The translations under genes were made by a program, and so were the position numbers. A stretch of DNA of 555 nt from a phage, in sequence record EF517104.1. One strand, given 5' to 3'. Below are positions 262 to 555 of this stretch, piece after piece (the first letter of the stretch is position 1; each line of letters opens with the position of its first letter). A model generated the notes under the pieces. That model made no database searches. It saw only the letters and a list, made by a program, of their open reading frames with translations, and was not told the origin of the DNA.

Positions 262-354
262 GGTTTTCCTGACCGACTGATGGCTCACCGAGGGATTCAG
301 CGGTATGATTGCATCACACCACTTCATCCCTATAGAGTCAAGTTCTAAGATATA

Positions 355-500
355 CCCATAAAGAGCCTCTAATGGTCTATCCTAAGGTCTATACCTAAAG
401 ATAGGCCATCCTATCAGTGTCACCTAAAGAGGGTCTTAGAGAGAGCCTATGGAGTTCCTATAGGGTCCTTTAAAATATACCATAAAAATCTGAGTGACTA
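355..500. repeat. Short-repeat region flanking the terminal repetition (CCTAAAG-family heptamers; SRR-like)
   Basis: Seen: exact CCTAAAG at 394-400 and 423-429 (plus 517-523 and 541-547 inside the terminal repetition). One-mismatch variants CCTAAGG 381-387, CATAAAG 357-363, CATAAAA 481-487. Local tandem TCTATCCTAAGG (376-387) / TCTATACCTAAAG (388-400). Four exact copies of one heptamer in 555 bp is well above chance (about 0.03 expected per specific 7-mer). Established knowledge (recalled): arrays of this heptamer flank the T7 terminal repetition on its inner sides. Confidence 0.6.
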
Positions 501-555
501 TCTCACAGTGTACGGACCTAAAGTTCCCCCATAGGGGGTACCTAAAGCCCAGCCA
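501..555. repeat. Terminal repetition, first 55 bp (right-end copy of a direct terminal repeat; truncated by the window)
   Basis: Seen: 501-555 = TCTCACAGTGTACGGACCTAAAGTTCCCCCATAGGGGGTACCTAAAGCCCAGCCA. Established knowledge (recalled): this is identical to the first 55 nt of the T7 genome, whose terminal repetition is 160 bp. Its position immediately downstream of a 19.5-like ORF fits the right genome end. The window stops inside the repeat. Confidence 0.75.
526..538. other. Inverted repeat / potential hairpin CCCCC-ATA-GGGGG inside the terminal repetition, flanked by CCTAAAG direct repeats
   Basis: Seen: CCCCC (526-530), ATA loop (531-533), GGGGG (534-538). Bracketed by CCTAAAG at 517-523 and 541-547, giving CCTAAAG-TT-CCCCCATAGGGGG-TA-CCTAAAG. 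Function not determinable from sequence. Confidence 0.5.

Follow-up and report, generated by a model that had tools for sequence, protein, structure and literature searches.

The heptamer CCTAAAG is strongly clustered, in a single orientation, in the window (the whole 555-nt stretch of DNA that was analysed), and the array that it forms is almost certainly the right-hand short-repeat array of phage T7 together with the first heptamers inside the terminal repeat. The single-orientation architecture of this array is conserved across Autographiviridae, and the word itself is lineage-specific. The identity of the array was read from its sequence: the window matched T7 39278-39832 with 98.6% identity across its full length (dozens of T7 records matched), in line with the first-pass annotation, in which a T7-type genome end had been guessed. 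Window positions were obtained by subtracting 39277 from the T7 position. The 160 bp at both extremes of the T7 record are identical and form the direct terminal repeat (TR), the right copy of which begins at T7 39778 (window 501) with the sequence TCTCACAGTG; this boundary was taken from the T7 record, and the window alone cannot show it. From left to right, the window runs from gene 19.5 through an inverted repeat and a repeat-rich unique flank into 55 bp of the TR (Table 1). Eight C:G>T:A transitions separate it from T7, and two of these have degraded a heptamer unit that was already degenerate (C>T at heptamer position 1 and G>A at heptamer position 7 of the unit at 344-350), and the substitutions of the window were absent from every record in the phage collection.

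Table 1. Features of the 555-nt window (T7 coordinates in brackets).
Feature	Position	Strand	Remarks
Gene 19.5, 49 aa	112-261	+	ORF; T7 record annotation; Pfam DUF5465
Imperfect inverted repeat	291-331 (T7 39568-39608)		19-nt arms, 3-nt loop, 79% complementary
CCTATAG, one mismatch	329-335 (T7 39606)	+	Left margin of the right array; no variation in 16 T7-like loci
TCTAAGA, decayed copy	344-350	+	CCTAAGG in wild-type T7; exact CCTAAAG in four relatives
CATAAAG, one mismatch	357-363	+	13 nt past the unit at 344
CCTAAGG, one mismatch	381-387	+	From the mismatch scan
CCTAAAG, exact	394-400 (T7 39671, -107 from TR)	+	13 nt past the copy at 381
CCTAAAG, exact	423-429 (T7 39700, -78 from TR)	+	From the exact-word count
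CCTATAG, one mismatch	457-463	+	Within palindromic CCTATAGG, hence a match on the - strand too
Most conserved block	462-509	+	No variation in 16 T7-like loci (at 485-509, but not at 462-484, a product of the search pattern); spans the TR left boundary 500/501
Right TR, first 55 bp of 160	501-555	+	Starts with TCTCACAGTG; identical T7 ends
CCTAAAG, exact, first copy within the TR	517-523	+	From the exact-word count
CCCCCATAGGGGG palindrome	526-538		Between both in-TR heptamers of the window
CCTAAAG, exact, second copy within the TR	541-547	+	Kept in most T7-like loci

Exact CCTAAAG occurred four times in the window against 0.13 expected, a count reached by 0 of 200 dinucleotide shuffles. When one mismatch was allowed, the whole window held 13 copies against 2.2 expected, and again none of the 200 shuffles held as many. 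The first-pass annotation had described four exact copies and several one-mismatch variants between 355 and 547 as clustered far above chance and as straddling the boundary between unique and repeated DNA. This description held throughout, with two of the exact copies (394 and 423) in unique DNA and two (517 and 541) inside the TR; the one-mismatch copies in this range are those at 357, 381 and 457, and the exact and one-mismatch copies all lie on the plus strand. A third in-TR copy lies at T7 39837, just past the end of the window, and at 457-463 most relatives have CCTAGAG. The units of the right array are spaced 13, 24, 13, 29 and 34 nt apart in the window, more loosely than in the left array, and in the window Tandem Repeats Finder reported a 13-nt unit at 369-398 with no more than 2.3 copies. 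The palindrome at 526-538 folded no better than shuffles (z = -0.1), and a CCCC-(A/G)TA-GG element was found in K1F, gh-1 and SP6 at the position equivalent to CCCCCATAGGGGG. The inverted repeat at 291-331 had a DNA fold of -7.2 kcal/mol (z = -2.9); it presumably corresponds to the hairpin-end site reported by Chung, Nardone and Hinkle (1990). Scans of the window for RNA families (Rfam), sigma-70 promoters and terminators returned nothing relevant.

Across the whole T7 genome, exact CCTAAAG was found 22 times on the plus strand and three times on the minus strand. The terminal ~840 bp holds 16 of the 22 plus-strand copies (three per TR copy, eight at 161-400 and two at 39501-39777), and the 39.1-kb interior holds six on the plus and three on the minus strand, against an expectation from (mononucleotide) composition of 2.6 per strand. 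The density was therefore 17.1 per kb at the junction versus 0.154 per kb in the interior, a difference of about 111-fold, and all 16 terminal copies lie on the plus strand (p = 3e-5). It had been suggested that the heptamer is confined to the flanks of the TR and that a similar density throughout the genome would speak against an array. The strong concentration at the ends stood up to the genome-wide count, but strict confinement did not, given the nine interior copies. The left array of T7, at 174-340, is a true tandem array with a period of 13 bp, and its units include GACCTAAAGACCA repeats. In an unbiased scan, the concatemer junction (the TR with 300 bp of flank on either side) was scored for all 7-mers against the rest of the genome; CCTAAAG was the top junction 7-mer of T7, with 13 plus-strand and no minus-strand copies in 760 bp (p~1e-23). 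In the concatemer, the right array, the single TR and the left array make up one continuous stretch of ~600 bp, of which the array in the window is the left part. This stretch holds about 25 CCTAAAG-type units that run in one direction and are often 12-13 bp apart.

The feature is already known. Dunn and Studier reportedly described in 1983, alongside the genome sequence, the T7 SRL/SRR short-repeat arrays flanking the 160-bp TR, and we take the array in the window to be the right one (SRR). It agrees with SRL/SRR in position (T7 39606-39740 plus the TR), in its CCTAAAG consensus, in its single orientation, in its concentration at the genome end and in adjoining and entering the TR, and it has the same ~13-bp unit as the left array (174-340), although a unit spacing of this type is clear in the left array only. 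There is no difference in kind; the window is a T7 variant that carries the eight transitions.

We extended the 7-mer junction scan to eight genomes from seven genera, one of them in the subfamily Molineuxvirinae (Table 2). Each junction word was strand-pure at its junction, and in each of the eight genomes none of 200 equally long interior stretches drawn at random reached the junction score. In phiA1122, AGAGAGA outscored CCTAAAG and was set aside as low complexity; in K1F the enrichment was marginal (p = 1e-7 versus a null minimum of 1.8e-7). Thus, the T3 (CCTAAAG), Berlinvirus (CCTTATG), K1F (CCTACAG), gh-1 (CCATAGG) and SP6 (CTTAGTG) families are like T7 in architecture, whereas the word differs by genus, and word type coincided with clade across the compared phages. 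Spacing and copy number were also compared across relatives, as had been proposed from the window, and pairs 12-13 bp apart were present in T3, SP6 and phiA1122; in other Autographiviridae the words were often 12-16 bp apart, and their enrichment was limited to the TR and its inner flanks. In distant Studiervirinae, similarity at the DNA level was kept only at about window 467-535. A search of IMG/VR for three heptamers 4-8 nt apart returned, among the matches listed, mostly arrays with a period of 12 or 15 in contigs that were not T7-sized and included giant-virus bins; to judge by the lengths of contig and match, these are probably coding Pro-Lys repeats. The period-13 arrays among the matches listed occur in T7-sized contigs of 37-40 kb.

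Table 2. Junction words in eight genomes; counts are given as plus/minus strand.
Phage	Genus	Word	Junction	Interior	p
T7	Teseptimavirus	CCTAAAG	13/0	6/3	~1e-23
phiA1122	Teseptimavirus	CCTAAAG	13/0	8/3	~2e-22
T3	Teetrevirus	CCTAAAG	9/0	9/3	~7e-14
Kpn-11mx	Teetrevirus	CCTAAAG	11/0	6/2	~2e-19
P694	Berlinvirus	CCTTATG	10/0	4/4	~9e-18
gh-1	Ghunavirus	CCATAGG	8/0	2/3	~1e-14
SP6	Zindervirus (subfamily Molineuxvirinae)	CTTAGTG	7/0	9/4	~9e-11
K1F	Kayfunavirus	CCTACAG	6/0	11/9	~1e-7, marginal

The word switch between lineages could be followed at homologous positions. When the junctions of T7 and P694 were aligned pairwise, CCTTATG stood where T7 has CCTAAAG, with the flanks kept (ACCTAAAGATAGG versus ACCTTATGATAG), and the switch was seen in left-array units as well as at both unique-flank copies (394 and 423). 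Homogenisation of repeats would not easily produce a coordinated switch at dispersed, aligned positions, whereas a change of the trans-acting reader would be expected to. Among the T7-like loci from IMG/VR, the copy at 394 was intact in 16 of 16 and the copy at 423 in 15 of 16, with 3-4 nt on each side of the latter varying; the copy at 517 varied among relatives, in which CCCAAAG or CCCAAGG is frequent there.

Serially passaged T7 clones (MZ3752xx), which have lost 2-2.8 kb, served as a natural experiment. In clones 170S, 200L and 280L, the region from gene 19.5, which lies upstream of the array, through T7 39608 is deleted, the inverted repeat included, and the phages are viable. The exact copy at T7 39671 (window 394) was destroyed by 9-10 bp deletions in 170S and 280L, and in the third of these clones the spacer between the copies at 394 and 423 was shortened by 8 bp. 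Between passages 10 and 300, none of the 11 left-end CCTAAAG copies was lost. T7 can therefore do without individual copies and without an exact spacing, and the array as a whole persists. It follows that mutagenesis of a single heptamer would probably have little effect.

These data also bear on a neutral origin, in which slippage or unequal exchange adds short tandem duplications to the non-coding DNA beside the TR. The heptamer would then be simply the core of the 13-bp unit that chanced to be amplified, with no function tied to its sequence. Several observations fit such a by-product. The left arrays of close relatives differ in unit number and contain variant words; there are runs in which whole units are identical, spacers included (four identical 12-nt ATCCTAACGACC units in the relative L136, and the GACCTAAAGACCA repeats of T7); and the evolved lines lose single copies. 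In addition, heptamer columns were not significantly more conserved than spacer columns in the 16 T7-like loci (2 of 14 versus 21 of 67 variable, p = 0.33; p = 0.16-0.35 across tests), a comparison that is underpowered since these loci are too similar. The left arrays clearly grow by tandem duplication, some of their units being evident recent duplicates, and part of the heptamer copy number may be neutral. As an account of the whole array, however, the by-product is unlikely. CCTAAAG is the top junction 7-mer in both T7 and T3 despite diverged surroundings, the dispersed copies (394 and 423) and those inside the TR are not products of tandem duplication, and all eight genomes have a junction word in one orientation and no comparable interior window. 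The switch of word between T7 and P694 at aligned, dispersed positions likewise speaks against it.

The boundaries of the TR themselves lack heptamers. The most conserved block of the window (462-509) is heptamer-free and includes ATCTGAG at 488-494; it is probably the cis element for cutting or nicking at the left TR boundary. At the right boundary, ATCTGT(T) was found exactly at the end of the TR in all panel genomes (including T7, T3, phiA1122, Kpn-11mx and SP6). ATCTGTT has been described as the class II pause signal of T7 RNA polymerase at the concatemer junction, and in T7 it lies at 161-167, at the left genome end and outside the window. Since heptamer units lie on both sides of the TR boundaries and the boundary blocks are free of them, the heptamers bracket the end-forming sites and do not occupy them. 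Like the heptamers, the class II signal is 7 nt long, oriented and located at the junction; unlike them, it has a different sequence, is present in a single copy and was mutated (ATCTGTT to CTCTGTT) in evolved T7 lines that kept the left-end heptamers. We rejected the identification of the heptamer with the pause signal, because CCTAAAG differs from it and the window has only ATCTGAG. An identification with the T7 RNA polymerase promoter was rejected as well: the 23-bp consensus TAATACGACTCACTATAGGGAGA had no match in the window on either strand with up to six substitutions. The nearest promoter in the T7 annotation, phiOR at T7 39229, is just upstream of the window.

A looser connection with transcription would have the heptamers slow the phage RNA polymerase or act as promoter-like decoys, thereby aiding the ATCTGTT pause that is thought to recruit terminase. 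Phage RNA polymerase is needed for the initiation of packaging, the class II signal lies precisely at the right TR boundary and all heptamer copies share the direction of transcription. Furthermore, the T3 promoter core CACTAAAGGGAGA contains CTAAAG, and the CCTATAG variants of T7 resemble the T7 promoter core. Even so, we consider this coupling quite improbable. T7 and T3 have the same word and different promoter specificities, which argues against RNA polymerase as the reader, and the word does not co-vary with the polymerase; the window lacks a promoter match at the threshold given above. The pause site is also upstream of most left-array copies, and the evolved lines with a mutated pause signal and intact left-end heptamers show that the two are not an obligate unit.

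A role in replication, in which the units guide nicking, priming or strand displacement so that the single TR is duplicated before the left end is cut, was judged to be about equally improbable. The arrays do bracket the TR that needs to be duplicated, and the array in the window is interleaved with GGTC, GGGTC and GTGTC, presumably the recognition sequences of T7 primase; the heptamer, however, lacks the GTC core of primase sites. The inverted repeat, which has been proposed as the hairpin intermediate, is deleted in viable evolved lines. Selective replication of the TR is part of packaging termination according to the literature. Moreover, specific single-strand breaks in mature T7 DNA have been reported, which would suit a nicking role, but in the literature accessible to us we found no link between these nick sites and the heptamers.

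The reading that we prefer is that the heptamers are putative recognition sites for a phage-encoded protein of concatemer processing or packaging. We put this mechanism forward tentatively, as level at best with its alternatives combined, and we regard the explanation as a whole, array identity and mechanism taken jointly, as about evenly poised between right and wrong. According to this proposal, the heptamers would be redundant and individually weak sites, and their reader would be encoded by the phage. The array would flag the junction within 40 kb of DNA, would act as a multi-site landing pad that concentrates terminase and would load the machinery in a fixed orientation next to two cut sites. 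The cut sites themselves would be the heptamer-free blocks, 462-509 at the left boundary and ATCTGTT at the right boundary. The left end of T7 is ejected first, and packaging generally starts from the opposite end; the array of the window would thus lie on the first DNA packaged. It would be threaded into the prohead first, where a packaging-initiation ('pacB'-type) site is expected.

A host protein is a poor candidate for the reader, because three words are in use among four phages of the same host, E. coli (T7, T3, P694 and K1F). The same fact weighs against a structural role, in which TAAAG, recurring every ~13 bp, would supply phased A-tracts that bend the DNA or attract a nucleoid protein of the host. 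A-rich cores do recur at a regular spacing of 12-13 bp, and the single-strand fold potential of the right array was somewhat above that of shuffles (z = -2.2). Nevertheless, neither CCATAGG nor CTTAGTG is an A-tract, units that recur every 13 bp do not keep in phase with the helical repeat and the 8-bp change in spacing was tolerated, so that we hold such a role to be very improbable. More remote still is an action in the virion, where units at the ends would interact with portal or core proteins and thereby anchor the end that is packaged first or bring the end packaged last into position for ejection. The copies are present at both mature ends in one orientation, and the left array is within the first DNA to leave the capsid, as T7 biology is generally understood. 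However, the arrays reach 170-350 bp from the ends, beyond the capacity of the portal channel, and lineage-specific words would demand a sequence specificity of core or portal proteins for which we know of no precedent.

Under the recognition-site proposal, the prime candidate for the reader would be an oligomer of the small terminase gp18, with gp19. The DNA-interacting terminase subunit is reported to be gp18, which recognises a 'PacB' signal, with gp19 cutting at 'PacC', and initiation of packaging in vivo requires T7 RNA polymerase (gp1), gp18 and gp19. We compared proteins of T7, T3, Kpn-11mx, P694, K1F and gh-1; phiA1122 was seen to have a gp18 of the T3 type. Since word type equals clade in this set, no protein was singled out. 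The gp18 segment RSPQLYNAINKLLDRHKF (about residues 32-49) was almost identical in users of CCTAAAG and CCTTATG, and the identity of gp18 to that of T7 was 72% in Kpn-11mx, with the same word, and 70% in P694, with the other word; neither the segment nor the identities separate the users of the two words, and the comparison thus lends no support to gp18 specifically. A search for gp18 returned no solved structure and no relative in the PDB. Of the candidates, gp18 is the best, though a weakly assigned one, and the reader might be another protein, since the putative DNA-facing helix of gp18 barely differs between word users. During packaging, T3 and T7 distinguish their own DNA from that of the other phage despite their common word, and the heptamer is therefore not the determinant of specificity between these two phages.

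The proposed sites can be set beside other packaging sites. Repeats recognised by small terminases are present at P1 pac (hexamers) and at SPP1 pac (pacL and pacR boxes). The R elements of lambda cosB and gpNu1 have also been described, with gp18 named as the T3/T7 counterpart. The T7 heptamers are like these repeats in being short, clustered beside a terminase cut site, non-coding and variable between related phages; the units bracket both boundaries of the TR. By contrast, T7 has many more units, with ~25 spread along ~600 bp and flanking each of two cut sites on either side, its units are very short (7 bp) and singly dispensable, and initiation also requires RNA polymerase. By analogy, the T7 heptamers resemble recognition repeats of small terminases, and we do not claim membership of that class for them. 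The literature accessible to us assigned the heptamers no role and held no binding or mutational data on them, in keeping with the caution of the first-pass annotation that their function is not settled. A full-text literature search returned no description of the repeats or of pac coordinates, and literature matches to CCTAAAG were discarded as primers or guide RNAs, not the junction array. The lineage-specific pattern of words may already have been noted in individual genome papers.

What reads the repeats, and why about 25 units are needed at the junction, is a question some forty years old. The same architecture in eight genomes, the strand-pure words and the homologous switch make the question of the reader testable, and the comparative word pattern may serve as a handle for experiments. 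The matter is of practical relevance to T7-based transducing particles and to synthetic phage genomes, in which the region is included as a 'packaging signal' that is not further defined. It is conceivable, though rather unlikely, that the junction word is a lineage code read by a co-evolving phage protein, so that switching the word would lead to packaging incompatibility between co-infecting Autographiviridae; if this were true, the junction would be a cis/trans isolation locus.

Motifs related to the class II signal, a pause and termination site of T7 RNA polymerase, were found at both ends of the terminal repeat (TR). In T7, T3, Kpn-11mx, P694 and gh-1, a relative of this signal, ATCTGA(G/A)TG, lies 7-13 nt ahead of the left TR boundary, and the right boundary carries ATCTGT(T), which in T7 is the class II signal itself; thus, an ATCTG motif occurs at both cut sites. 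In addition, T7, K1F, gh-1 and SP6 share the element CCCC-(A/G)TA-GG(GG) 25-38 nt inside the TR, and its counterparts are CCCCCTATGG in P694 and CCCCCCCCATAGCCCC in T3. This element is kept between subfamilies, which the remainder of the TR is not, and its core is CCATAGG, the junction word of gh-1. A further kind of TR repeat was detected in two Berlinvirus-like contigs, in which six to seven copies of TGTGGATAAC, all in a single orientation, are spaced ~11 nt apart. The reverse complement of TGTGGATAAC is a perfect DnaA box (TTATCCACA), and the repeats suggest that the ends of the genome may recruit or titrate the DnaA protein of the host.

Coordinates of features in the window, in T7 and in related records (handles of retrieved records in brackets)
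Feature	Position	Records
Left-boundary relative of the class II signal, ATCTGAG	window 488-494	
Class II signal at the right boundary, ATCTGTT	T7 161-167	T7
ATCTGTT to CTCTGTT	first base past the left TR	MZ375266 (L163), MZ375271 (L165), MZ375287 (L164), MZ375291 (L167)
CCCC-(A/G)TA-GG(GG) element	window 526-538	
Inverted repeat	T7 39568-39608, window 291-331	
Deletion region	equivalent to window ~ -150 to 331	MZ375266, MZ375287, MZ375271 (L160-L162)
18-bp deletion within the TR	T7 39877-39894	MZ375266, MZ375287, MZ375271
Differences from wild-type T7	window 41, 136, 153, 227, 265, 344, 350, 444	
phiA1122 gp18	phiA1122 34184-34453	
TGTGGATAAC copies	TR ~45-160	IMGVR_UViG_2711768803_000001 (L140), IMGVR_UViG_2974600058_000001 (L137)

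The gp18 protein of phiA1122 is identical to T3 gp18 and 92% identical to T7 gp18, while most of the other phiA1122 proteins compared are 93-99.8% identical to those of T7 (gp3, 87%). This makes the phage mosaic in its small-terminase gene, with CCTAAAG as the word of both donors, T7 and T3. The phiA1122 concatemer junction also contains a simple (AG)n run, and AGAGAGA, counted 14 times, outscored CCTAAAG in a raw 7-mer scan of this junction. Among the IMG/VR matches listed (L013-L092), many contigs of a size other than that of T7, giant-virus bins among them, carried triple CCTAAAG arrays with a period of 12 or 15; on the basis of period and contig size only, these arrays are probably in-frame Pro-Lys coding repeats unrelated to the T7 arrays.

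The window differs from wild-type T7 at eight positions, and all eight differences are transitions (six C>T and two G>A). This transition-only pattern is characteristic of cytosine deamination or of an alkylating mutagen, and not of natural divergence. The eight substitutions were absent from every record of the phage collection searched. Those at 344 and 350 degrade one degenerate heptamer, the wild-type form of which is CCTAAGG.

Other changes were present in serially passaged T7 clones. Gene 19.5 and the entire inverted repeat, the proposed hairpin intermediate site, were deleted in three evolved clones, and are therefore dispensable for T7 growth; the same clones also carried an 18-bp deletion within the TR. 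Furthermore, the junction class II signal was altered by one base in clones from passages 170-300, the three deletion clones among them, and was still wild type in the passage-10 clone MZ375233 (L166). According to one paper, class II termination is lost upon any base change; if this holds, the pause thought to link transcription with packaging may have been lost in the passage 170-300 clones.
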